From Verrucomicrobiota bacterium (GTDB lineage Bacteria > Chlamydiota > Chlamydiia > Chlamydiales > SM23-39): DNA of 48,934 nt. Below, in pieces: positions 1 through 27,083 of this stretch. The position numbers and the translations under genes were made by a program. The stretch covers positions 1 to 48,934 of the forward strand of contig JAGWKU010000002.1 of NCBI GenBank assembly GCA_028873375.1, read 5' to 3'. A model generated the notes under the pieces. The model was not told where the DNA came from. It worked only from the letters and a program-made list of their open reading frames with translations, and did no database searches. The number at the start of each line of letters is the position of its first letter. Position 1 is the first letter of the stretch.

Positions 1-128
1 GTACTTGTCTTTTTTCTTGGAAGGAGTCGTATCTTTCTTGGGTGCCATATCGAGCCTAAAGTTTTTGTGTGAGCAACAAAAAATTTAAAGACTCAGTGGT
101 TTGAGAACAAGAAGAACCTCATCCGCAG

Positions 129-1923: not shown

Positions 1924-2597
1924 GTTTTTTCTCCTAGTAATTCGGGTCGTACCCGGCGTGTTTTTTCGGTTGCTTTTTCCAAGCGAAATTGGCGAATCTT
2001 CGCATGGTTTCCTCCGACGAGGACGGGGGGCACTGCCTTCCCTTCAAATTCGAGGGGGCCGGCAAAGTGGGGGCCGTCAAAGAGGCCGTTTTGGAACGAG
2101 TCCTCTTTTACTGCATCGGGGTGGCCGATGACGCCGGGAATAAACCGGCTCACGGCGTCGACGAGAACGATGGCAGCAATACAGCCATTCGTCACGACGT
2201 AGTCGCCAATGCTGATCTCTTCGTCGACTTCTGTTTCAATCACTCGCTCATCGATTCCTTCATAGTGACCACAGAGCAGGATCAGGTGCTCTTTTTGGGC
2301 CAGTTCTTCGCATTTCCGGGCACTTAACAGGGGCCCTTGTGGCGAAAGGTATACGACATGCGAGCGTTCTTTTTTTACGCTCCGAATCGCTTTAGCGACC
2401 GGATCGGGACAGAGGACCATGCCAGGGCCCCCGCCGTAGGGGCGATCATCTACTCGGCGGTGTTTATTCTCGGCAAAGTCCCGAATGTCCAATAAATGTA
2501 AATCAAGGATCCCCGCCTCTCTTGCCCGCTTGATCATGCTGACGTCAAAAGGTCCGCGAAAATAATCGGGAAAAAGGGAGAGGATATCGATTTTCAT
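1920..2597 (-). CDS. trmD: tRNA (guanine37-N1)-methyltransferase TrmD
   Basis: 225 aa from ATG 2597 ([25 protein letters not shown]...[12 protein letters not shown]...[10 protein letters not shown]). The longer track ORF (to 2888) overlaps rpsP in another frame. The ATG lies 1 nt after the rpsP stop. Confidence 0.93.
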
Positions 2598-2598
2598 A

Positions 2599-2958
2599 CT
2601 ACTTCTTCTTAGCTGCTGCCTTTTTAGCGGGCTTTGCAGGAGCTTTTTCCTTTTTGCGCTGTACGCGAGCTTTCTCCATCTTCGCGACTTTCTTTGCGCC
2701 CATTTGTTTGACCACCTCGGGAGCCAAGCGCTTAACGAGCGACTTGACGCGATCAGAGACTTGTGCGCCCTGGTCGATCCAATATTGGATGCGTGGAACG
2801 TCGAGTTGGTAGTTGGTCCCTTCGGGTCCGAATGGATTGTACCAGCCGAGTTTTTCAATGTATTTGCCGTCGCGGGGATAACGGACATCTGTGAGAACGA
2901 CGCGAAAGCGTTGTCTGCTGTTTGCGCCTTGCTGTCTCATGCGAATGATTAACGCCAT
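2599..2958 (-). CDS. rpsP: 30S ribosomal protein S16
   Basis: 119 aa. The S16 N-terminus is clear (MALIIRMRQQGANSRQRFRVVLTDVRYPRDGKYIEKLGWYNP) and the tail is Lys/Ala-rich. Confidence 0.95.
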   Translation of the reverse strand: MALIIRMRQQGANSRQRFRVVLTDVRYPRDGKYIEKLGWYNPFGPEGTNYQLDVPRIQYWIDQGAQVSDRVKSLVKRLAPEVVKQMGAKKVAKMEKARVQRKKEKAPAKPAKKAAAKKK

Positions 2959-4304
2959 TGTTTACCTTCAAATTGCTTTTTCAGTTCTTTCAAATCCGAC
3001 AATCCCGGCTTTTTGCCTTTCATATCGGGCATGTTTTTAAAAAGTTGCTTCACCCGTTTAAATCCTTTCACCATCCGGTTCACCTCTTCGATGTCGACTC
3101 CACTGCCTTTTGCAATGCGTCTCCGGCGGCTATGCTCGAGCTCGACAATTTCTTGCCTTTCGGCAGGTGTCATCGAGAGAATCATCGCCTCGAGTTTTCC
3201 GAACTCTTTGTCGGAATAGTCGAGGTCCTCTAGCCCTGAAAACCCAGGCATCATCTTGAGCAAGCTCTTTAGCGAGCCCATCTTCTTCACCGCCCCCATT
3301 TGCTTGAGGTAATCTTCGTAGGTGAAGGAGGCCTTTTTTAATTTCTTCTCGAGCTCTTTGCTCTCTTTCTCGTCAAACGCCTCTTGCGCTTTTTTGACGA
3401 GGTTGATCACATCGCCCATGCCGAGGATTCGGTCGGCCATCGAGCGGGGATAAAACAATTGGAAGTCGGCGATCTTTTCACCCACTCCCTCAAACTTTAG
3501 CGGCCGCTTCGTCACTTCTCGAATCGAGAGGGCAGCTCCTGCTCTCGCATTCGAATCGAGCATCGTGAGCACCGTACCGGTGATCTGTACTCGTCGGTCA
3601 AACTCTGCAGCGATTTTCACCGCATCTTGACCCGTCGTCGCATTGGCGACAAAGAGGACTTCTCTCGGCTCGAGCAGCTTCTTCAGCTCTTCGAGCTCTT
3701 TCATCAACTCTTCGTCAAGATGAAGTCTTCCCGCCGTATCGACGAGGAGGACATCATACTCTTCTCGCTTCGCTTTTTCTAGCGCTTGCCGAGCGATCTT
3801 CACTGGGCTCGTCTCTCCCTCAATGGAAAAGACGTCGACTCCAATTTCCTTCCCCAGCTTGTGGAGCTGAAGGACTGCGGCGGGCCTCTGCAAATCGCAA
3901 GCGGCCATCAGCACTTTTTTGTGCTTTTCTGTGCGGCCAATGTAGGCCGCGAGTTTGGCACACGTCGTCGTTTTGCCCGAGCCCTGGAGTCCGCAGAGCA
4001 TCACAACCGAAGTCTTTCCGTTCAAATCGAGCGGGGCCTCTTCGGTGCCCATCAGAGCGACTAGTTCATCATGGACAATCTTGATGAACTGCTGCCCTGG
4101 ATCAACCGCCTTCAAGAGGGCTTCGCCGAGGGCCTTTTCCTTCACCCGTTTGATGAACTCACTCGTCACAGAATAATTCACATCGGCATCGAGAAGAGCC
4201 AGCCGGACTTGCCGAACGGCCTCCCCAATATTGTCCTCAGTGAGCTTCTTGCCTTTCAGCCCTGAAAACAGTCCCTGCAGTTTTTCTATGAATGAGCCAA
4301 ACAT
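2949..4304 (-). CDS. ffh: signal recognition particle protein Ffh
   Basis: 451 aa. SRP GTPase motifs GLQGSGKTTT, DTAGR and TMLD are present, followed by a Met-rich M domain (LLKMMPGF...MTPAER). It overlaps the rpsP start by 10 nt. Confidence 0.97.
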   Translation of the reverse strand: MFGSFIEKLQGLFSGLKGKKLTEDNIGEAVRQVRLALLDADVNYSVTSEFIKRVKEKALGEALLKAVDPGQQFIKIVHDELVALMGTEEAPLDLNGKTSVVMLCGLQGSGKTTTCAKLAAYIGRTEKHKKVLMAACDLQRPAAVLQLHKLGKEIGVDVFSIEGETSPVKIARQALEKAKREEYDVLLVDTAGRLHLDEELMKELEELKKLLEPREVLFVANATTGQDAVKIAAEFDRRVQITGTVLTMLDSNARAGAALSIREVTKRPLKFEGVGEKIADFQLFYPRSMADRILGMGDVINLVKKAQEAFDEKESKELEKKLKKASFTYEDYLKQMGAVKKMGSLKSLLKMMPGFSGLEDLDYSDKEFGKLEAMILSMTPAERQEIVELEHSRRRRIAKGSGVDIEEVNRMVKGFKRVKQLFKNMPDMKGKKPGLSDLKELKKQFEGKQWR

Positions 4305-5174: not shown

Positions 5175-6235
5175 GAGGAGAGCTGTTCTTGGTAGAAGTG
5201 ATTGACGAGAGGGATCGTCACATCGTCGAGATCGCCTTCCATGATCCGATCGAGTTTATAGAGAGTGAGATTAATCCGATGATCAGTGAGGCGGTTTTGA
5301 GGGTAATTGTACGTGCGAATCCGCTCGGAGCGGTCACCGCTTCCCACCTGACTGGAGCGGATGGCCGACATTTCAGCCTCGGCTTTGCGGCGCATCTCTT
5401 CCGCAATGCGGGTCTTGAGAAGGCGCATCGCCTTTTCTTTGTTTTTATGCTGGCTTCGCTCGTCTTGGCAAGCGACCACAGTTCCTGTAGGAATGTGGGT
5501 GATTCGGACGGCCGAGTCGGTCGTATTGACGTGCTGGCCGCCGGCACCCGATGAGCGATAGGTGTCAATTTTTAGATCTTTTTCATCGACCCGGATGTCG
5601 TCATCGTCATTGGGCTCCAACATTACTGCTACCGTGATGGCCGATGTATGAACCCGCCCTTGCGCCTCAGTTTCTGGCACTCGTTGAACGCGATGGGTTC
5701 CCGCTTCATATTGGAGCAAGCGAAAGACGTTTTGTCCCGACATCGACATGACGTATTCTTTGTAGCCACCAACCTCAGAGGCTGACGTAGATAAGACGTC
5801 CACTTTCCACCCCTTGCTCGTCGCGTAGTTGCGATACATCCGGATACAGTCGCCGGCAAATAGGGCTGCCTCATCGCCGCCTGTACCTGCGCGCAGCTCC
5901 ATGATGATGGAGCGACTGTCGCGAGGATCGGGAGGAACGAGTAAGTTTTGGACGTGGGCTTTGGCTTCGGGAAGACGCGTCTCAAGGGCAGCGATTTCTT
6001 CGCGAAGCAATTCGATCATCTCTCGATCTTGTTCATCGGAGAGAAGCTTTTGATTTTCAGAGAGCTGCTTTTCGATGGAAGAGAGCGTGTCCCAAGCCTC
6101 TCTTAATTCAGAGAGCTGGGCGTGCTCTTGGGTGAGCAATCGATACCGTTTTTGATCGGTGAGAATCTCCGGATGGCCCAGCAGCTCTTCTAATTCTCGC
6201 AGCTTCTCCAAAAGCTGCGATACTTTCTGTTCCAT
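5171..6235 (-). CDS. prfA: peptide chain release factor 1
   Basis: 354 aa. It has the GGQ motif ([23 protein letters not shown]) and an RF1-type PxT tripeptide (VPETE). Confidence 0.96.
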
Positions 6236-6743: not shown

Positions 6744-7583
6744 ATGTCAATTCCCCCTATACCCCGCTCTACCGCCACCCCGCGCCCTCTCAAGGCGATC
6801 CTAGGAGCTCTTATCCTCCTCTTTGCGGTCGACCTCTTTCTCCCCTTAAGGCCCTACCTCGGTCTCTCCCTTTCCAACCTGACCCACGGCTATTTCTGGA
6901 CTCTCCTCACCTATCCTTTCGCCTCTGGCAGTCGCGATTTCCTCTCCCTCTGCCTCGACCTCTTTTTCCTCTGGATTCTCGGGGCCACCCTGATCGACCG
7001 GCTCCAGTCGAAAAACTTCCTATTGCTCTTTTTCGGCTCTACTCTCTTCACCGGCCTAGCTGCCTCCCTAAGCCTCTACCTCCTCAAAAGCCCCCTCCTT
7101 TTTTCCCAGCTATCCCCTATCCTCCTCTCCCTCTTCACCGCCTGGACCCTTCTCCACGCCAACCGCGACGTCCATATCACAACGCTTCTCATCGTCCGGA
7201 CCGCCTGGATCTTCGCCTTTTTCGCCGGCTTCCACTTCCTCTTCAACCTCCTCGAGAGTCGCTGGATTGAAATGATCGCCGACATAACGGGCCTCTTTTT
7301 CGGCTACTTCTTCTGTGTCTTCTCCCAAAAAGTGAGCAGCCCTTTTTCCATCCTCTTTCCCTTCGAAAGAAGAGTCCTCCGCTCCATGGAGAAAATCCAT
7401 CCTCATAAAAGCCCTGCCCACACCAAAATCTATGACTTTCAGACAGGCGAGCCAGTCCTCGAGGACATCGCCTTCATGGATGCCATGCTCGCCCGCATCT
7501 CCCTCCACGGAGAGCAATCGATCTCCCCAGCAGAACGAAAGCGAATGCAAGAGATCTCCGAGAGAAAAGCTTCTAAGAAATAA
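6744..7583 (+). CDS. rhomboid-fold membrane protein, catalytic Ser/His apparently absent
   Basis: ATG at 6744; the track start at 6708 is TTG. The sequence is polytopic with the rhomboid-like core YFWTLLTYPFAS...LFFLWILGATLIDRL...FFGSTLFTGLAASL. No GxSG or TM6 His is visible, and the tail is a cytoplasmic helical segment. Confidence 0.6.
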   Translation: MSIPPIPRSTATPRPLKAILGALILLFAVDLFLPLRPYLGLSLSNLTHGYFWTLLTYPFASGSRDFLSLCLDLFFLWILGATLIDRLQSKNFLLLFFGSTLFTGLAASLSLYLLKSPLLFSQLSPILLSLFTAWTLLHANRDVHITTLLIVRTAWIFAFFAGFHFLFNLLESRWIEMIADITGLFFGYFFCVFSQKVSSPFSILFPFERRVLRSMEKIHPHKSPAHTKIYDFQTGEPVLEDIAFMDAMLARISLHGEQSISPAERKRMQEISERKASKK

Positions 7584-7591
7584 CCCCTCTC

Positions 7592-7786
7592 TTTCTTGCT
7601 GCACTTTGCGGGTTCAGTGATCTCAGTGCTCTCAGTGGTGCAATTCTGCCGCGCTTAGCGGCTTGGGCTTTAAGATGCAAAGCTTGCTCAGCACCATTGA
7701 ACAGACTTGAAGCTTAAGCTCTCGTAAAAGATAGCACCACTGAAAGCACTGAGATCACTGAGGCCGCGCAAAGCGCGTCGGAAAAG
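7592..7786 (-). repeat. palindromic intergenic element, copy 1 (core inverted relative to the other copies)
   Basis: Arms at 7592-7646 (..GCACTTTGCGGGTTCAGTGATCTCAGTGCTCTCAGTGGTGCAAT) and 7731-7786 (ATAGCACCACTGAAAGCACTGAGATCACTGAGGCCGCGCAAAGCGCG..) are inverse complements. The reverse complement of the central ~85 bp aligns with the core of copy 4. Confidence 0.85.
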
Positions 7787-7813
7787 AAGGAGAAATTGCT
7801 CAGCGGTAAAACC

Positions 7814-20225: not shown

Positions 20226-21253
20226 AACTGTGGCAACGACATCTCTTCTATCGCCTTACCCTCACCTTTTCCTTTCTCCTCTGTTCCCTCTTTGCCATCT
20301 ATCTTCTCCTCGACCTCTCGATCAATGGCGTCCGATTCCTCGGCAAAGGACATGCGGAGCCCCTCTCCCTCCTCTTCTATTACCTCCGCTCCTTTTCGGT
20401 TCATCTCGAGCTCTTCTTACCCCTTTCCTTTCTCCTCACGGTCCTCAAAGTGCTCCTCGATCTCAATGAGCACCTCGAACTCGTCGCTCTTCAAATGGCT
20501 GGCCTCTCGCGCAAAAAACTTCTCGTCCCCTTTTTCTTCTTCGCCTCTTTTCTTTCCCTTACCTGTTACGCGAATAGCGAGTGGATCGCCCCTACTGCCA
20601 TCAATGCTGCCAAAACATTCCGCGCCACCTACTCCACCCACAACAAAAAACCGCGCCGTGAAAATCTTCACGCTCTTGTCCTCCAGGATGGCTCCGAACT
20701 CGTCTACCAAACCTTTTCCGACCACGAACTCTTCGACGTCTTTTGGATCCGCTCTCGCCACGACATTTGGATGATGAAAACTCTCACCCTTACGACTCCC
20801 CCTACCGGCTACTTCGTCGATCATCTCGTCCGCACCCATCAACTCGAAAAAACAGAAAGTTATCCGATCCGCTCCTTTCCCGAACTCACCTGTCCCTCTC
20901 CAAAGCCCTTCATCCCCTTCGAGAGCCGCCCCCTCTCCACCCTCCTCCAAGAAGCGCTCTACGCCTCCTCCGACAAAGCAAGCGTCCAAACCCACCTCCA
21001 CTACAAACTCGCCCTTCCCCTCCTCTCCTTTCTCATCCTCCTCGCCCTTGCCCCCTTTACCCTCCGCTTCTCCCGCACCCGTCCCCTCTTCCTCCTCGCC
21101 GCCCTCAGCCTCTTCGCCTTCTTCGCCATTCTCACCCTCCTCGATAGCTGCCTCATCCTCGGTGAAAACCAAGTTTTTTCCCCCGCCCTCGCGATTTGGT
21201 CGCCCCTCTCTCTCCTCTTTGCCCTTTCCGTTCCCCGTTTTTCCCGGCTTTAA
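20222..21253 (+). CDS. lptG: LptG-like permease (YjgP/YjgQ family)
   Basis: ATG at 20222 forms an ATGA overlap with the lptF stop (MKLWQRHLFYRLTLTFSFLL...). The 3+3 TM architecture matches lptF. The track ORF start at 20141 lies inside lptF. Confidence 0.7.
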   Translation: MKLWQRHLFYRLTLTFSFLLCSLFAIYLLLDLSINGVRFLGKGHAEPLSLLFYYLRSFSVHLELFLPLSFLLTVLKVLLDLNEHLELVALQMAGLSRKKLLVPFFFFASFLSLTCYANSEWIAPTAINAAKTFRATYSTHNKKPRRENLHALVLQDGSELVYQTFSDHELFDVFWIRSRHDIWMMKTLTLTTPPTGYFVDHLVRTHQLEKTESYPIRSFPELTCPSPKPFIPFESRPLSTLLQEALYASSDKASVQTHLHYKLALPLLSFLILLALAPFTLRFSRTRPLFLLAALSLFAFFAILTLLDSCLILGENQVFSPALAIWSPLSLLFALSVPRFSRL

Positions 21254-21265
21254 CCACAAAAAAAA

Positions 21266-21448
21266 TTTTTCTCTGCCGCACTTCGCGGCCTCAGTGTTCT
21301 CAGTGATCTCAGTGGTGCAATCTTTTTCGAGCGTTTAAATGCCAAGCCTGCTCGATAATACTGAGCAAGCTTAGCATTGGAAGCTCTCTAAGATATTGCA
21401 CCACTGAGATCTCTGAGAACACTGAGGTCGCGAAACGCGACAAAAAAA
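21266..21448 (+). repeat. palindromic intergenic element, copy 2
   Basis: Left arm TTTTTCTCTGCCGCACTTCGCGG-CCTCAGTGT-TCTCAGTGA-TCTCAGTGG-TGCAAT. Right arm ATTGCACCACTGAGATCTCTGAGAACACTGAGGTCGCGAAACGCGACAAAAAAA. The core contains CTGAGCAAGCTT. Confidence 0.9.
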
Positions 21449-21460
21449 GAGAAAACTTTC

Positions 21461-21796
21461 TCAGTGTTGAGATTTGTTGACGATCGAGAGATAGTCACGA
21501 AGAGTTTGCAAATCGTGCTCGATTGCAAGGATACTCTCTTCCGAATGTTCATTGAAGAAATGGCGATAATCAGCTTCGAGCTTGAACTCTTGCTTGTGAA
21601 GACGCTGGAGTTCGCGGGATGATTCTTGGATCAGGTGGAGATGGGTGTCCATCACGCCTTTCAGACGAGGTTTGTCTGTGGGAGACGCTTTCAGATATTG
21701 CTGAAATGCCTCTTCAAATTTGCGAGTACTCACTTCTAAGTCTTTCCGGGGATCCGGAGTCTTGGGGCCGTGGTTGCCTGTGCCAATCTTGTTCAT
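21461..21796 (-). CDS. hypothetical helical protein (111 aa), paralogue of 21793..22086
   Basis: ATGA overlap with the upstream gene. It shares HLHxIxE..RELxxL and (A/R)D(Y/F)xxF(F/L)xxxxE(E/N)(S/T) blocks with the 97-aa neighbour. Confidence 0.65.
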   Translation of the reverse strand: MNKIGTGNHGPKTPDPRKDLEVSTRKFEEAFQQYLKASPTDKPRLKGVMDTHLHLIQESSRELQRLHKQEFKLEADYRHFFNEHSEESILAIEHDLQTLRDYLSIVNKSQH

Positions 21797-22086
21797 AGTT
21801 CTCTGATCTCGTGTTTGATTCTCATCGTGTCTGCAATCATCTTCGCGGTCGCAGTTTCGTTCTCGGGCTGCTTGAGAAAGGAGACAAAATCTCTTTGAAG
21901 CGCTTGGACATCGACGAGAAAAGACCCGCCGATCTGTTGCGCTACACGGAGAATTTCTTTCAATTCCCTCTCTGCTTCTTTGACGTGCGAATGATTTTCA
22001 ATCATGCCGTGGAGGTGCTTCAAAAAGCAAGAGAGCTTTTCGTCCACCTCGCGAAAGTACTTCTGATTGCGAGCAATAGGGTCCAT
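21793..22086 (-). CDS. hypothetical helical protein (97 aa)
   Basis: A strong SD (GGAGG, 7-nt spacing) lies inside the end of the upstream gene. The start is 3 nt after the stop of 22090..23838. Confidence 0.65.
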   Translation of the reverse strand: MDPIARNQKYFREVDEKLSCFLKHLHGMIENHSHVKEAERELKEILRVAQQIGGSFLVDVQALQRDFVSFLKQPENETATAKMIADTMRIKHEIREL

Positions 22087-22089
22087 GGG

Positions 22090-23838
22090 TCACCTCCAAC
22101 GAATCATATCGTCTCGAAGGTTTTTGACAAGGGTGAGAAATGAGAGATGGCCATTCACATAGAGAGACAAAAGTCTATGCTCCTCTTCCGCTGCCTGGGG
22201 TCGAAGGCGATGGAAAAGACTCCGCTGGACGAGATGGCAAAGGAACGGATTGAACGAGTGTTCATCTCGGACGATTCGGCAAAAAAAGCGAAAGCCTGTA
22301 AGGGCCTCAGGACTCTTGAGGTTCGAACCAATTTCTGTAGCGATCGATCCAAGAGACAGCCGCTCTTGCCGATGGAAAAAGCTCTCGTCGACCCACTCCC
22401 CCTCTTCTTCGCAAGGCGTCCAGGCAAAGGCTTGGCCGATCATCCGAAAGATTTGAAGGGCCGGGCGATACCCTGAAAGGCGATTTTCAGCCAGAGCGAT
22501 GAGGTCTTTGACAAAGTATCGCAAGTGGCTCCGTCCGTCATAGAAAAAAGGCTTTCCTGCAGAAACCGCTTCGGTAAAGCTTTGATCGCCTCGCACAGCC
22601 ACCCAATCTTCGCTTAAACCCATCAACTTTCGCATGTCGGAATCGGACAGATATCCGGGAGAGAGAAGCCGAAGCAATTTCCCCTTCGAAGCAATCGGAA
22701 TGACGTAGCGGTGCTCTTCAAAGCAGAGGATAATCTCTCGCACTCCATAGGCTTCTTCAAGGAGCGGTAACCGAGCACTCTTTCGCTCTTCGATCCATCG
22801 GATGAACCACCCGAGGGTCGGCGTGCAGAGGTCGATCCCCGCCAATTCTTCTTCCCATCGTTTTAAAAGCGAATGGAGGTAGATCATCCCGCCACTGACC
22901 GTCGCCAAATAAGCCAAATGAAACCGATTGGCCCGACGATAAGCGCTTACTTGCGCAGGCGAAGGAGTCTCCGTGTCAAAGAGCCAAAGGAGTAGATTTT
23001 TATTCTCCAGAGAAGCAAAGGACGCCTTCTCCATCGACCGAATCAATACCCCTTTCTCCAACGCGTGAAGTCCCATCGACCGATTCCCCGTCTTAGGATG
23101 AAACCACCCCGATTCGAGAAAACCATACTCGCCGATATGCTCCACCTTCGGAAAGGGACGCAAAGAAGCCATTTGGCTCAAATCTCCGAGAAGCAAATTC
23201 GTCTCAGGAAAAAAAGTCGGAATTTGCAGAATCAAATCCATCTCGCGGAGCAACTTTTTCTTCTCATACGAAAAGGCGGCCACCGTAGGGTCCTTTTCAT
23301 AGAAAATCGGATGGGTCGTCACCGACGCATCGAATGGGAGTGAGCGAGACGTTAAGACAAACCAGTGAAGCTCAATCTCCGGGAATTGCGCCTGCAACAA
23401 AGCCGCCGCCTCTTTAGCCGCAATCCAATCTCCCAAGCCATCGGGAATCACCCACGTCAAGAAAGCAACCCGCATCTTTTTCTCTAACGGCACTCCTTCG
23501 TACAGGCTAAAGAGCGCCCGATCGACCGAAAGGGCTTTCAAAGTGGGCAAATGAGAGAAGTTTTTCTTGATTCTCGAACAGCTCGGATCTTCCCGATCGT
23601 AAAACCTCGGCAAGCCCCGATAGATGCGAGGAAAATAGGCCAATAATCCTGCTTCCTGAAATTCTTTTTGTGAAAAGCTGTTCATCCACTGCAATTCGAT
23701 CCGAAAAGAGTGTTCCTCTTTCAATCGTTGGTGATAATTGTGAATGATCTCATGGAGCGGCGCTCCAGAGTCGACCTCCGCACCGTTCTGGCGAAGGAGA
23801 GAGAAAACCTCTCGGTAAAATGGGCTGATTTCAGACAT
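22090..23838 (-). CDS. GT-B-fold glycosyltransferase-like protein (EarP/GT1-like motifs) with N- and C-terminal extensions
   Basis: 582 aa. Residues 122-150 (MRVAFLTWVIPDGLGDWIAAKEAAALL) resemble the EarP N-terminal DNYGDIG loop or the GT1 GSRGD loop. Residues 390-435 (LLSPGYLSDSDMRKLMGLSEDWVAVRGDQSFTEAVSAGKPFFY) resemble the EarP ..DLNFVRGEDSFVRAQWAGxP.. motif and the generic GT-B C-terminal motif. Motif spacing is ~285 aa. Confidence 0.5.
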   Translation of the reverse strand: MSEISPFYREVFSLLRQNGAEVDSGAPLHEIIHNYHQRLKEEHSFRIELQWMNSFSQKEFQEAGLLAYFPRIYRGLPRFYDREDPSCSRIKKNFSHLPTLKALSVDRALFSLYEGVPLEKKMRVAFLTWVIPDGLGDWIAAKEAAALLQAQFPEIELHWFVLTSRSLPFDASVTTHPIFYEKDPTVAAFSYEKKKLLREMDLILQIPTFFPETNLLLGDLSQMASLRPFPKVEHIGEYGFLESGWFHPKTGNRSMGLHALEKGVLIRSMEKASFASLENKNLLLWLFDTETPSPAQVSAYRRANRFHLAYLATVSGGMIYLHSLLKRWEEELAGIDLCTPTLGWFIRWIEERKSARLPLLEEAYGVREIILCFEEHRYVIPIASKGKLLRLLSPGYLSDSDMRKLMGLSEDWVAVRGDQSFTEAVSAGKPFFYDGRSHLRYFVKDLIALAENRLSGYRPALQIFRMIGQAFAWTPCEEEGEWVDESFFHRQERLSLGSIATEIGSNLKSPEALTGFRFFCRIVRDEHSFNPFLCHLVQRSLFHRLRPQAAEEEHRLLSLYVNGHLSFLTLVKNLRDDMIRWR

Positions 23839-23900
23839 AAGCCAGGGAAAGGTAATTCAAGGGAGCTACAATGTCAATTCTTTTTTTCACGAACCATTAG

Positions 23901-23959
23901 AAAATTTCACCACCGAGAGCACCGAGGCCGCGCTTCGCGGTTTTGTTTCTCTCGGTGGT
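23901..23959 (+). repeat. palindromic intergenic element, truncated mini-copy 3
   Basis: AAATTTCACCACCGAGAGCACCGAGGCCGCGCTTCGCGGTTTT is a right arm of the CCGAG variant. CTCTCGGTGGT at 23949-23959 pairs perfectly with ACCACCGAGAG at 23909-23919. The stem touches the stop codon of 23959..25872. Confidence 0.75.
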
Positions 23960-25872
23960 TAGAGAGCTTCGATTTCGGAGTGACGGTAGGTTTCCCAGAG
24001 AAGACGGAAGGGCGGACATTTTTCGAGGAGCTCGGTGATCGTCCCTTCAGCGAGTTTACGCCCTCTTTCGATGTAGATAATCTTATCGGAATGCTCAATG
24101 GTCGAAAGGCGATGAGCAATGAGAATTTGCGTCACTTCCCCTTGCAATTGCCGAATGGCGAGTTTGATCCGATTTTCCGATACGGCGTCGAGCGAAGAGG
24201 TCGCTTCATCCATGATGAGAATCGGCGCTTTTTTCACAAGCGCACGGGCAATGGCGAGCCGCTGTTGCTGGCCCCCTGATAGGGTCTTGCCCATTTCGGC
24301 TAGCATCGTGTCATATTGCTGGGGCAATTCGACAATGAACTCATGGGCATAGGCTTTTTCTGCCGCCTCGATGATTTCCTCGCGGGAAAAAGACCTACCA
24401 AAGGCGATGTTTTCCACCACGGTATCGAAGAAAAGGAACGGCTTTTGCGGCACAAACGCGATTTGCTCCCGAAGCGAGCGCTGCGTCAGCGCGCGAATTG
24501 GAATTCCATCGATGCGGATCTCCCCTTTTTGAATATCGAAAAGGCGAGGCAATAATTGGACCACCGTCGATTTGCCGGCCCCGGTCGAGCCGACGAGAGC
24601 GACGATCTCTCCTCGTTTGACCGTAAAGCTCAAATCTTTCAGAACCCATTCATCGCGGTATTTGAACCAGACGTGATCGAACTCGATCAAATTCTTAAAG
24701 CCAGTTAGATCGATGGCTCCCTCTTGATCGGCAATTTGGGGCTTTAAATTAAGCACTTCAAACATCCGCTCCGCTGCCACAAGCCCCTTTTGGATATTGG
24801 CATTCTCCTCGGCAAATTTTTTCACTGGCTCATAGAACAAATGGAGCAGGCCGCAAAACATGAGTAGCTGGCCGACCGTCATGTGCAAGATATAAAGACC
24901 AAAGAGAACTACCACGGCTAAACAGGTAGTCGCAATCAGGTGGAGAAGAGGCCTCGTCAATAACCCATACTTGGCGCTCTTGGTTTCCAAAAAGGCCATC
25001 CGGTCGTTTTGCTCTTTGTACTTGCGAAGCGAGAAGGCCTCCATCGCAAAAATCTTAACCGTTTGGATCCCCGCTAAAAAGTCGAGTAGGACCGAGGTAA
25101 AAGTCTCCTGATTTTTCTGCAGCTGCCGTGTGATCCGCTTCACCTGTCTCGTCAAGTAAATCACCGGCATGATGATCAAGGGCAATCCCAAAAAGATGAT
25201 CATCGAGAGCTGCCATGATAAATAAAAACAAGCGATGAGCGTCGAGATCACCGTAAACGGCGTCTGCAAATAGTTCGTTAAACAGGAATTGAGCGAAGAG
25301 GAAATTTGTCCCGCATCGCCTACTGCCCGCGACGATAAACTCCCCAAGTTCTGCTCTTGGTAAAAACTGAGAGGAAGTGACTGGATATGCTCAAAATACT
25401 GCTGCCGTAGATCGCGCGTGATTCGAATCGATAAAAGCTGAGTGAAATAACGGGCCATGAAAAGCGTAGAGCCCTTGAAAAGCGCGACTCCGACGAGGAT
25501 CGCAACGAGGAGAGAAAAGTTTTGTTCGACGTCGAAATGGGCCGACACTTGGTGCATTACCCAGTAAAGCGGGTTCGTGTCTTTTCTCCGCGCAATATGA
25601 AGAGCAGCATCTTGCTTGGTGATGACCCCGTCGTTGTCTTGATCGATCTGATCCCACCGGCGTAGCACCTCTTCGAGCTTGATCTTGTCTTTAACCTTTT
25701 TCCCCTCGCCGCCAAACAGCGTAAAAAAATCGGCCCCCGTGTTGGCCATAAGGCCCACTGAGAACATTTCACATTGGTTGGCCACCGTAAGAAATAGGAG
25801 GCTCACCAACGTCAACATGGCAAGAGTGAGGTGGCGACTGTTTCGGAGAGCCGCCTGCAAAAGCAATTTCAT
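23959..25872 (-). CDS. ABC exporter, fused TMD-NBD (MsbA/lipid A export-like), with EF-hand-like insert in extracytoplasmic loop 1
   Basis: 637 aa. Walker A GSTGAGKST, signature LSGGQQQR, Walker B ILIMDEATS and H-loop IAHRL are present. The TMD has six helices, with a ~65-aa insert between TM1 and TM2 that contains DQDNDGVITKQD. Confidence 0.9.
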   Translation of the reverse strand: MKLLLQAALRNSRHLTLAMLTLVSLLFLTVANQCEMFSVGLMANTGADFFTLFGGEGKKVKDKIKLEEVLRRWDQIDQDNDGVITKQDAALHIARRKDTNPLYWVMHQVSAHFDVEQNFSLLVAILVGVALFKGSTLFMARYFTQLLSIRITRDLRQQYFEHIQSLPLSFYQEQNLGSLSSRAVGDAGQISSSLNSCLTNYLQTPFTVISTLIACFYLSWQLSMIIFLGLPLIIMPVIYLTRQVKRITRQLQKNQETFTSVLLDFLAGIQTVKIFAMEAFSLRKYKEQNDRMAFLETKSAKYGLLTRPLLHLIATTCLAVVVLFGLYILHMTVGQLLMFCGLLHLFYEPVKKFAEENANIQKGLVAAERMFEVLNLKPQIADQEGAIDLTGFKNLIEFDHVWFKYRDEWVLKDLSFTVKRGEIVALVGSTGAGKSTVVQLLPRLFDIQKGEIRIDGIPIRALTQRSLREQIAFVPQKPFLFFDTVVENIAFGRSFSREEIIEAAEKAYAHEFIVELPQQYDTMLAEMGKTLSGGQQQRLAIARALVKKAPILIMDEATSSLDAVSENRIKLAIRQLQGEVTQILIAHRLSTIEHSDKIIYIERGRKLAEGTITELLEKCPPFRLLWETYRHSEIEAL

Positions 25873-25923
25873 TGTGATTCAGTGTAAAACTACCCCCTTG
25901 AATAAATCAAGCTTGGATCCTGC

Positions 25924-26115
25924 TTTTCGCCGCGCTTCGCGGCCTCAGTGTCCTCAGTGCTCTCAGTGGTGCAATCTTTTACGAGAGTTTAAATCTTAAG
26001 TTTGCTTGGCGATACTGAGCAAGCTTGTCATCTAAAACCATAAGACCGCGAAGCGCGGCAAATTTCACCACTGAGAGCACTGAGGACACTGAGGCCGCGA
26101 AACGCGGAAAAAAAA
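25924..26115 (+). repeat. palindromic intergenic element, copy 4 (best preserved)
   Basis: Left arm TTTTCGCCGCGCTTCGCGG-CCTCAGTGT-CCTCAGTGC-TCTCAGTGG-TGCAAT. The right arm ATTTCACCACTGAGAGCACTGAGGACACTGAGGCCGCGAAACGCGGAAAAAAAA is a near-perfect inverse. The core holds an extra CCGCGAAGCGCGG hairpin at 26047-26059. Confidence 0.9.
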
Positions 26116-26117
26116 TC

Positions 26118-27083
26118 TTAGAGGCTTGTTGGGCTGGTCTCGAACTTGCCCATTTTGCGGAATTTTTGGTAACGATTTTCGAGAAGAAGAGTCGGTGGGA
26201 TCTCTTTTAGTTCCTCCCACGTCTCTAGAACGAATCTTTTGACAGCGGCAAAGGTCGCTTGCGGATCTTGGTGAGCGCCGCCGAGCGGTTCTTCAATGAC
26301 CCGATCAATGATGCCTAATTCAATCAGATCTTCGGGGTGCATTTTAAGCGCCGAGGCAGCAGTGGCGTTCTTGGTTGGGTCTTTCCAGAGAATGGAGGCG
26401 CATCCTTCGGGCGAAATAACGGAGTAATAAGAATGCTGGAGCATGCCAATCACATCGCCAACGCCAATGCCGAGCGCACCACCCGAACACCCTTCCCCAA
26501 TCAATAGGACAATAACTGGAGTTGGTAAGCGAGCCATTTCCCAAAGATTGTTAGCAATCGCCCATCCCTGTCCCCGCTCTTCTGCAGAGAGACCTGGATA
26601 AGCGCCTGGGGTGTCGATCAACGTCAAAACAGGAAGGTGGAATTTAGCGGCGAGACGCATGAGGCGCATCGCTTTTCGGTATCCTTCAGGATGAGGCATG
26701 CCGAAGTTGCGGTAGAGGCGACTTTCAGTGTCTTTGCCCCGCTCTTGGCCAATGAGAAGAAATTTTTGATCGCCGATCCTAGCGAGCCCGCCAATGATCG
26801 CATGATCGTCTTGAAAAGCGCGATCGCCAAAGAGTTCGACGAATTCGTCGCAGATATTGGCGATGTAGTCACTCGAATGAGGCCGTTGTGGATGGCGGCA
26901 AATGCTGACCCGTTCCCACGGTTTCAGTTGGGAATAGACGCTTTTCTTGAGCTGCTCGAGCTTCTTTTCCATCTTGCCGAGCTCGTCCTGAGACCAAAGA
27001 GCATTGTTCTTGTTTTGCTCTTTGAGCTTTTCGAGTGTCTGCTCGTATTCAAGGATTGGCTTTTCATGTGGTAAGACGGTCAC
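26118..27083 (-). CDS. accA: acetyl-CoA carboxylase carboxyltransferase alpha subunit
   Basis: 321 aa with [26 protein letters not shown] and a [10 protein letters not shown]-type oxyanion region. Confidence 0.95.

Follow-up and report, generated by a model that had tools for sequence, protein, structure and literature searches.

In this study, we analyzed a 48,934-bp contig (hereafter the window, which is all that represents its source genome here) of an environmental chlamydial lineage, and a family of palindromic intergenic elements that occupies five loci in it. On the basis of the current results, we consider it moderately probable that the five elements represent copies of one mobile repeat that is hairpin-forming and non-autonomous, resembles MITEs (miniature inverted-repeat transposable elements) and REPINs (hairpin-forming doublets of repetitive extragenic palindromic, or REP, units), has spread within this Chlamydiota lineage and is derived from cassettes carrying a gene of the GxxExxY family; a GxxExxY-type nuclease would be the mobilizing enzyme, and the transcribed elements would be processed by ribonuclease III (RNase III). 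The elements are repeated and palindromic, the variation in their arms is compensated, they are absent from orthologous sites in relatives, and arrays of the same type flank GxxExxY genes in other genomes. The lineage would carry an expanding palindromic repeat that reshapes gene ends.

Four full copies (∼150–230 bp) and one mini-copy were present at all five loci named in a preliminary description of the window, and they were palindromic as described there. This corresponds to five elements of 60–230 bp per 49 kb, none of which contains an open reading frame (ORF), and a profile built from the alignment of the four full copies (nhmmer) detected no additional copy in the window. The proposed layout held for the copies at 21266, 25924 and 7592, which consist of a T-run, a CCGCG-N3-CGCGG hairpin, three 9-mers, GTGCAAT, an asymmetric core with a CTGAGCAAGCTT block, the inverse arm, a second hairpin and an A-run. 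It needs to be amended in two respects, because the alignment revealed that the core of the copy at 7592 is inverted relative to those at 21266 and 25924, and that an inner unit has been lost from the left arm of the copy at 37741. A repeat search gave inverted arm pairs of 37–59 nt with 85–96% complementarity, and the arms clustered into direct-repeat families D1, D3 and D5. Their units are CTC[A/G]GTG heptamers at 9-bp spacing and fall into two subfamilies: three copies have CTCAGTG, and the copy at 37741 and the mini-copy have CTCGGTG, as previously described; both arms of any one copy share the same variant. The two-unit pattern CTCRGTGNNCTCRGTG (at most one mismatch) had 16 matches against 0.05 expected, a number that none of 100 shuffles reached, and the bare heptamer had 32 matches in the window against 9.3 expected. 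A 103-nt stretch that includes the core and is 84% identical was common to the four full copies. Thus, the shared arms and this stretch point to common descent rather than to independent slippage.

The ends first assigned to the copies appear to need revision at three loci. As judged by eye, the copies at 7592 and 21266 seem to run 10–25 bp further on each side, and the copy at 37741 ∼5 bp further on the right. The outer arms thereby added are degenerate: on the left they start with TAACCAC (TTAACCAC) or AACCCC and continue with a pyrimidine-rich stretch, and on the right they are purine-rich, then carry CTCAGTG-TT, CTCAGCG-GTAAAA or GTGGTTA, and end with CTCAGYGGTAAA or GTGGTTA. The layout of a full copy is thus [degenerate arm - GC hairpin - CTCAGTG arm] - core - [CACTGAG arm - GC hairpin - degenerate arm]. 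It is made of two inverted hairpin units whose inner arms pair mutually, and the mini-copy is a single such unit. The elements, with their RNA folding energies and z-scores against shuffled sequences, are as follows.

7582..7811, minus strand: full copy 1 (previously 7592-7786), core inverted relative to copies 2 and 3; -108 kcal/mol, z = -8.8. Left arm units 7613-7637, GTGCAAT to 7644; inner GC hairpin 7649-7661; right arm units 7738-7762; right GC hairpin ∼7764-7778; degenerate outer arms AACCCCTCTCTTTCTTG (7582-7598) and CTCAGCGGTAAAA (7799-7811). Context: rhomboid-like ORF (+) on one side, tadA (-) on the other.

21251..21470, plus strand: full copy 2 (previously 21266-21448); -109 kcal/mol, z = -15.3. 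Outer boundary TTAACCAC at 21250-21257, holding the LptG stop codon (21251-21253); left GC hairpin 21276-21288; left arm units 21290-21296, 21299-21305 and 21308-21314; GTGCAAT 21315-21321; core 21322-21394 with an inner stem around CTGAGCAAGCTT; right arm units 21402-21408, 21411-21417 (CTCTGAG) and 21420-21426; right GC hairpin 21427-21441; outer lone unit CTCAGTG 21460-21466, carrying the stop codon of a 111-aa gene.

23901..23959, plus strand: mini-copy, with the arm order common in other genomes; -36 kcal/mol, z = -6.5. CACCGAG units 23911-23917 and 23920-23926; GC hairpin CCGCGCTTCGCGG 23928-23940, then TTTTGTTT; single CTCGGTG unit 23951-23957, then GTTAG. Context: msbA stop codon on one side, promoter-like AAAAAAAGAATTGACA block of the next gene on the other.

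25924..26115, plus strand: full copy 3; -115 kcal/mol, z = -13.3. Left GC hairpin 25930-25942; left arm units 25944-25950, 25953-25959 and 25962-25968; GTGCAAT 25969-25975; core 25976-26061, including an inner GC hairpin 26046-26058; right arm units 26069-26075, 26078-26084 and 26087-26093; right GC hairpin 26095-26107; A-run 26108-26115. Context: gap between the minus-strand genes accA and msbA.

37741..37885, plus strand: full copy 4 (copy 5 of the preliminary description), CTCGGTG subfamily; -67 kcal/mol, z = -6.4. Left GC hairpin 37750-37762; only two left arm units, 37764-37770 and 37773-37779; short core ∼37783-37833; right arm units 37841-37847, 37850-37856 and 37859-37865; right hairpin 37866-37880, then AAGTGGTTA. 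Context: divergent genes, a 117-aa ORF (-) and a CT021-family gene (+).

92..100, plus strand: solitary unit CTCAGTGGT after an A-rich run, AAAAAATTTAAAGA-CTCAGTG-GTTTGAGA.

The lone 9-mer reported to form the last codons and stop of the ORF 21461..21796 is present, and we read its heptamer (21460-21466) as the surviving unit of the outer arm of copy 2. The fragment noted at 92-100 was likewise found, as the solitary unit listed above; its letters are similar to those of the lone outer unit in copy 2 (CTCAGTG-TTGAGA), and it may be an arm relic.

The near-perfect long stem expected of the arms was supported by folding, with z-scores of -6 to -15 across all copies for RNA and of -12 for the DNA fold of 25918-26120. 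The variable dinucleotides between the heptamers differ across copies and are complementary inside each copy, so that 7 of the 53 predicted pairs are altered on both sides, and the A/G variant of the heptamer is likewise compensated inside each copy. The core (21322-21394, 25976-26061 and 7645-7730) also holds a conserved stem of its own, in which AAGYYTGCTY pairs with the CTGAGCAAGCTT block and variation is only of the G-U type.

Comparison with relatives provided evidence for insertion. The nearest relatives of the AccA protein come from uncultured Chlamydiota, and the gene order ykuD-accA-msbA-hypothetical gene is kept in three relatives (loci L119, L120 and L121 were compared). In L119 and L120 (85% AccA identity), accA and msbA overlap by 35 bp, and the window has the copy 25924-26115 and its flanks at this place; the repeat thus separates two genes that in relatives overlap and, presumably, are translated together. 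Between the msbA stop codon and the conserved, promoter-like AAAAAAAGAATTGACA block, L119 is empty and the window has a 78-bp mini-copy, while L120 has a different insert of ∼120 bp (7650-7770) with a CACAGAG-CACAGAG-CGCAGAG 9-mer array, the partner arm of which is only weakly recognizable. Altogether, the relatives are without the window element at two of three comparable sites, at one of which a different array is present in the second relative. No array was found in L119 and L121 (∼39 kb together) and one in L120 (8 kb), compared with five elements in the 49-kb window. These differences amount to presence/absence polymorphism, and one site was hit independently. The empty orthologous sites argue for insertion and against fixed regulatory hairpins, strict positional conservation of which had been named as the finding that would speak against a dispersed repeat.

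The copies sit at gene ends, 2–14 kb apart, with housekeeping genes between them. They are intergenic, but the earlier statement that they never interrupt a conserved coding sequence holds only in part, since the copies abut and reshape gene ends. For example, the 111-aa protein encoded beside copy 2 ends with LSIVNKSQH*, whereas its relatives end with NQL* or NNLP*. The TAA of the element boundary (T)TAAC is the stop codon of LptG (21251-21253), the rhomboid-like ORF (7581-7583) and MsbA (23959-23961), and the 111-aa gene stops at the TGA within the lone CACTGAG unit. It appears that the elements supply or overlap the stop codons of their neighbors.

The occurrence of the arms outside the window was examined by two large pattern scans, one for three 9-mers in genome contigs and one for a hairpin with two 9-mers in metagenome contigs. 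Both were noisy, and the matches listed were mostly chance ones in high-G+C genomes; those listed for genome contigs were mainly coding repeats of high-G+C actinobacteria, plus loci of Chlamydiota and Chloroflexota. An origin of the arms as coding sequence (LGA/TTE repeats) was ruled out, the arrays lying outside ORFs. On the basis of these scans and of the GxxExxY loci described below, the array type was seen in other Chlamydiota (L066, L071, L083 and L089), Chloroflexota, Verrucomicrobiota, Gemmatimonadota, Acidobacteriota, Rifleibacteriota, Bacteroidota and others. The arm type occurs in at least seven phylum-level lineages. The common design is AAC-(CACNGAG-NN)x3, an interval of 20–500 bp and (CTCNGTG-NN)x3-GT(T/G/A)AA. 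Identical arm strings, such as CTCGGTGCTCTCGGTGTCCTCGGTG-GTTAAA, were found in Chloroflexota and Chlamydiota, and canonical arms also in loci of Verrucomicrobiota, Gemmatimonadota and Acidobacteriota. As far as their sequences indicate, the window arms belong to this cross-phylum class of inverted arrays of three CACNGAG/CTCNGTG heptamers at 9-bp spacing that end with GT(T/G/A)AA. Elsewhere the class takes two forms, many gene-less hairpins and pairs of arms that bracket a small GxxExxY gene of the PD-(D/E)XK type. In nearly all other elements the CACNGAG arm comes first and the CTCNGTG arm second; the reverse order (CTCAGTG...CACTGAG) was seen in the full copies of the window and in one element of L102, and the mini-copy has the common order. 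The full copies further differ from the common form in that GTGCAAT faces the core and that they have terminal GC hairpins and a shared core. In viral contigs, the array pattern gave few canonical arms, none of them beside an ORF of interest. The family had not been recognized as a described one, and this view was partly borne out: the elements had no match in Rfam, which returned only transfer-messenger RNA (tmRNA), tRNA and sub-threshold noise, and copy 3 had no blastn match in plasmid and phage collections; however, a compatible consensus appears in the published description of paired sites in Geobacter (PMC2700814), and the arm type is widespread as shown above. Two further observations concern the arrays themselves. 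Long head-to-tail runs of 12–17 CTCNGTG 9-mer units, compared with the three units of an arm, which may be either expanded arms or repeats in coding sequence, were present at L077 961-1113, L213 911-1063 and L140 935-1042, and two Chloroflexota loci (L099 ∼3740-3780 and L114 ∼5450-5490) have a motif ATGTAGGGGCGA-N-TCGCCC some 60–100 bp from a CACCGAG arm.

At seven to eight of the 11 loci examined, the arrays bracket GxxExxY genes. This association had been missed in the preliminary description, as had the opposite arm order of the window copies compared with the common form. The arms in L089 surround a 126-aa ORF that belongs to GxxExxY (TIGR04256, E = 6e-42; PF13366, PD-(D/E)XK, E = 2e-39), and both arms were present at all four chlamydial GxxExxY loci examined (L089 and three relatives). 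A tblastn search of plasmid records yielded seven GxxExxY genes in seven taxa, in four of which (Bacteroides finegoldii, Bernardetia, Gemmatirosa and Sphingomonas) inverted, 9-bp-phased arrays flank the gene. The arms of B. finegoldii read TTCAC-CACAGAG-GA-CGCAGAG-GA-CACGGAG ... CTCTGTG-AC-CTCTGTG-TC-CTCTGTG-GTGAA, the Gemmatirosa gene is flanked by two complete hairpins, and the Sphingomonas arrays are a variant form with the unit CGCGAAG. The Treponema gene has a single 11-bp inverted repeat, and the Prevotella and fusobacterium genes have direct repeats instead. GxxExxY cassettes were wedged in operons (radA|X|FAD protein, fabD|X|fabG and ade|X|guanylyltransferase). In finished records, a single GxxExxY gene is accompanied by numerous gene-less hairpins: Gemmatirosa has at least six within 50 kb, and B. 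finegoldii has three within 25 kb. On plasmid 1 of Gemmatirosa kalamazoonensis, one array hairpin (TTGAAC...GTTCAA) lies in the loop of another (L337 5470-5680), and such nested insertion is typical of mobile DNA. Contigs that bear GxxExxY genes are mostly 1–2 kb long, as expected if the repeat breaks assemblies, which such repeats probably do in metagenomes.

The GxxExxY family is large, comprising, at 50% identity, 28,024 clusters with E <= 1e-3 or 11,364 with E <= 1e-10, and its function has been listed as unknown (PMC3424549). Literature searches with the names of the family and with literal arm sequences found no account of an association between the repeats and the gene, and alignment of the GxxExxY protein against viral contigs gave no relatives. 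Some members (P0241-P0256) are 240–295 aa long and have two matched stretches, that is, they are tandem two-domain fusions. In one chlamydial cassette, a Tn5-like insertion sequence (DDE_Tnp_1) lies between the left arm and the GxxExxY ORF (L326 967-2906). In another, four tandem units of ∼117 bp, each with a left arm, precede the gene (L329 2042-2500) and two right arms follow it (2894-3040), so arms can be amplified in tandem.

A side test was carried out on genes for four-helix-bundle proteins, with hits validated by the annotation of the records themselves. Eight such genes (S23p/Avd-like; L339-L346) in plasmid records of Bernardetia, Monoglobus, Euhalothece, Treponema, Chondrinema, Chlorohelix, Nostoc and Planktothrix each lay between inverted arrays of tandem 7-bp units. 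The layout is like that of GxxExxY genes, with another period and another sequence. The array units are mutually unrelated (AGTGATT, ACCAGTG, GTCGGAG, CGTAAAT/CCCCAAT, GATGAAG and others), and several of the genes are wedged in restriction-modification, DISARM or BREX operons.

With regard to origin, the window family may be an ORF-less derivative of a [hairpin]-gene-[hairpin] cassette of the Gemmatirosa type. After deletion of the gene, the facing arms of the two hairpins would pair across a short shared core, and loss of the gene in this manner would account for the terminal GC hairpins as well as for the reversed arm order. Another part of the genome could encode a GxxExxY-type nuclease that recognizes the heptamer arrays, either as duplex DNA or as hairpins that are extruded or single-stranded, cuts close to the conserved boundary and promotes copying into A/T-rich positions at the ends of genes. 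We suggest, with moderate to low confidence, that the nuclease mobilizes its own cassette as well as gene-less derivatives, as RAYT (REP-associated tyrosine transposase) does for REPINs. At the same level of confidence, the 45–50-bp stem, when transcribed, would be a probable substrate of RNase III that splits or stabilizes the flanking mRNAs, as in rRNA intervening sequences, and such processing would make insertion inside operons tolerable. A broader proposal, which we put forward as a tentative possibility, is that GxxExxY proteins serve as the enzymes of a mobile-element class that is new and spans phyla, with ends made of 9-bp-phased CACNGAG arrays acting as DNA or RNA hairpins, parallel to the RAYT-REPIN system with another catalytic fold, and that the window palindromes are non-autonomous offspring of this class. 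The family belongs among the non-autonomous palindromic repeats; of more interest is its link to a scarcely described class of arrays and to an uncharacterized nuclease family. Its arms tie together the paired 9-mer arrays of Geobacter, the gene-less hairpins of cultured bacteria (Bacteroides finegoldii and Gemmatirosa kalamazoonensis) and the large GxxExxY/PF13366 family, and the function of GxxExxY, which might be to mobilize or process repeat-armed hairpins, becomes directly testable. If true, a new enzyme-repeat partnership would join the short list of bacterial non-autonomous element systems.

It should be noted that several observations weigh against a mobile repeat derived from GxxExxY cassettes. 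The classification as MITE- or REP-like agrees with a dispersed palindromic family, and mobility is supported by the empty sites, but the partner enzyme that had been suggested as a check was not found: Pfam and NCBIfam scans detected no transposase, integrase or RAYT among the 42 main ORFs of the window, and tblastn and the family hidden Markov model detected no GxxExxY gene in it. The copies are only 75–87% identical to one another, which implies that the spread is not recent. Their ends at the five loci have no consistent direct repeat, and the empty-site comparison for the mini-copy shows insertion beside an A-run without a clear target-site duplication. No significant remnant of GxxExxY coding sequence was detected in the cores of the copies, and there was no full-length copy outside the window among the matches listed for the large scans and the profile. 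Because the arm order is reversed, the full copies might escape a protein that reads which way the arms point with respect to the element tip. GxxExxY itself is a putative nuclease by its family assignment; it has no relative in the PDB by sequence, and its AlphaFold model is poor (mean predicted confidence, pLDDT, of 53). In B. finegoldii, the interiors of the gene-less hairpins are mutually unrelated, which is unusual for MITE families. Finally, the four-helix-bundle genes with arrays of other sequence indicate that a small ORF inside a repeat-armed hairpin is more general than one pair of enzyme and site. This layout may reflect a general process of the host or at the RNA level, in which the stem itself is selected, rather than an enzyme encoded by the cargo.

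An alternative explanation is that the elements are RNA hairpins serving the host, as RNase III sites, stabilizers of mRNA 3' ends or insulators between cistrons, selected at the RNA level, with heptamers generated by slippage and without mobility. The stems are very stable on both strands, copies are located at gene ends and between co-directional genes, changes in the arms are compensated, and rRNA intervening sequences offer a precedent with a 28-bp terminal stem that RNase III cleaves (PMC4990558); the unrelated tandem-repeat arms around four-helix-bundle genes also suggest that the stem matters more than a specific sequence. Nevertheless, we regard this explanation as rather unlikely, since slippage in place cannot make the non-arm core common to the copies, the elements are absent in close relatives, where accA and msbA overlap, the copy at 37741 lies between divergent genes, the same heptamer is kept across phyla, and one insertion is nested in Gemmatirosa. 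Nor are the full copies intrinsic terminators, as no U-run follows the stem. For the large stems this function was rejected on either strand, the T-run preceding the stem and the A-run following it, and a terminator scan of 21000-26400 gave two element-associated sites, none of them at the large stems: the mini-copy on the plus strand (antisense to its neighbors) and the inner GC hairpin of copy 3 (26045-26059, minus strand).

Still less probable, in our judgment, is that the 9-mer arrays are binding sites of a nucleoid protein or global regulator such as integration host factor (IHF) or HU, through which the elements would organize the chromosome or regulate transcription. The paired sites of Geobacter metallireducens were read in this way (PMC2700814), although in the account that this report from 2009 gives of the sites the assignment is a prediction without experiment. 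The heptamer is conserved and the spacers are variable, as expected of a recognized sequence, and a gene for HU lies in the window (29227-29568); on the other hand, relatives with the same genes lack the sites, a binding model needs no strict complementarity of the arms including the spacers, and a host regulon would not account for the cross-phylum association with a nuclease gene. To our knowledge, neither IHF nor HU has a CACNGAG consensus. The related suggestion that the 9-bp phasing resembles iterons or protein-binding arrays fared differently in its two parts. A replication-origin function was not supported, because plasmid-type iterons are direct repeats of ∼17–22 bp at an origin beside a rep gene and the window has 9-bp units in inverted sets at five dispersed chromosomal sites and no rep gene; the heptamers may serve as a protein recognition sequence. 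An even more remote alternative, largely refuted by the data, is a cluster of integron-like attC sites or cassette boundaries without an integrase. The elements are imperfect palindromes within the general size range of attC sites (57–141 bp), the ends TTAAC-CAC ... GTG-GTTAA of the common form resemble the core sites RYYYAAC and GTTRRRY, and elements elsewhere bracket small accessory ORFs. However, the window contains no integrase, its copies lie 2–14 kb apart among housekeeping genes and not in cassette arrays, other lineages have GTGAA, GTAAA or GTTCAA at the ends, so that the match to GTTRRRY is not general, and the ORF lies inside the hairpin and not beside it. For the window copies in particular, attC sites were rejected, as their inner ends GTGCAAT do not fit GTTRRRY and neither IntI nor a cassette array is present.

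We also compared the elements with known systems. As in REPIN-RAYT systems (Bertels and Rainey 2011, PMC3116915), two inverted, palindrome-containing units form a larger hairpin, so the inverted doublet characteristic of REPINs was found here; the copies are dispersed, intergenic and non-autonomous, and a presumed enzyme gene is flanked by inverted repeats (here GxxExxY, in other genomes). In contrast with REPINs, there is no GTAG/CGTC head, the ends in the window being TAACCAC / GTGGTTA and the inner units CTCAGTG; the arms are three heptamers at 9-bp spacing and not a REP of 20–40 bp; and the associated gene has a PD-(D/E)XK fold and not that of an IS200/IS605-type Y1 transposase, none of which is encoded in the window. 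MITEs share with the family a short, non-coding, multi-copy and dispersed nature, terminal inverted repeats (arms of 37–59 nt) and presence/absence between relatives. They differ in that the inverted repeats are here internally periodic arrays, and appear to differ in that no clear target-site duplication was seen at the window copies and that no known transposase has matching ends; the arms do match the arrays flanking GxxExxY, but their order is reversed relative to the putative parent cassette. Rickettsia palindromic elements are palindromic repeats of ∼100–150 bp that spread in an obligate intracellular lineage and reshape gene ends. As far as their general description allows the comparison, they are distinguished by in-frame insertion in genes, by the lack of 9-bp-phased heptamer arrays and by their occurrence in another phylum.

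In array type, the closest prior record appears, on its published consensus, to be that of the 'class 2 global regulator binding sites' in the genome paper of Geobacter metallireducens (Aklujkar et al. 2009, PMC2700814). Its account of these sites lists 21 paired sites with three tandem repeats of 8–9 nt (consensus TCTCCGTS[Y]) on opposite strands at variable spacing, located between housekeeping genes and also inside operons, and reads them as putative IHF/HU sites. Compared by this consensus only, both have three units of ∼9 nt, a CTCNGTG core, an inverted pair and an intergenic position. The class 2 sites, as presented there, concern one genome only and are not tied to GxxExxY or mobility, and the window copies have in addition terminal GC hairpins, a shared core and the reversed arm order. 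The 23S rRNA intervening sequences with an S23p ORF (Coxiella and Leptospira; PMC4990558) resemble the arm-bracketed genes in having a terminal inverted repeat stem of ∼28 bp around a small ORF; they have long been suspected to be selfish, and their stem is cut by RNase III (PMC4990558). Unlike these sequences, which reside in rRNA helices and carry a four-helix-bundle cargo, the window copies are ORF-less and lie between protein genes, and the Rfam search detected no rRNA in the window. Finally, heptamer tandem repeats in convergent pairs, namely the short tandemly repeated repetitive (STRR) sequences of cyanobacteria and the GGGAATC repeats of Xanthomonas (PMC4692102), are likewise short, inverted-pair, intergenic arrays, but they have a 7-bp period, long and variable arrays and other unit sequences; the Xanthomonas repeats were reported to be positionally stable between Xanthomonas species (PMC4692102).

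As to the genomic surroundings, every window ORF with a family match in the Pfam and NCBIfam scans was a housekeeping gene. These genes include L19, TrmD, Ffh, RF1, PNPase, FtsH, LptF/G, MsbA, AccA, HU, TyrRS, GroEL, IleRS and FabI, together with the Chlamydia-specific CT021-family protein. Relative L120 has an AbiEii/AbiEi toxin-antitoxin pair beside ykuD (2115-3501), which is not at that place in the window or in L119. A tmRNA gene is located at 46250-46652 on the plus strand of the window (Rfam RF00023, 140 bits).

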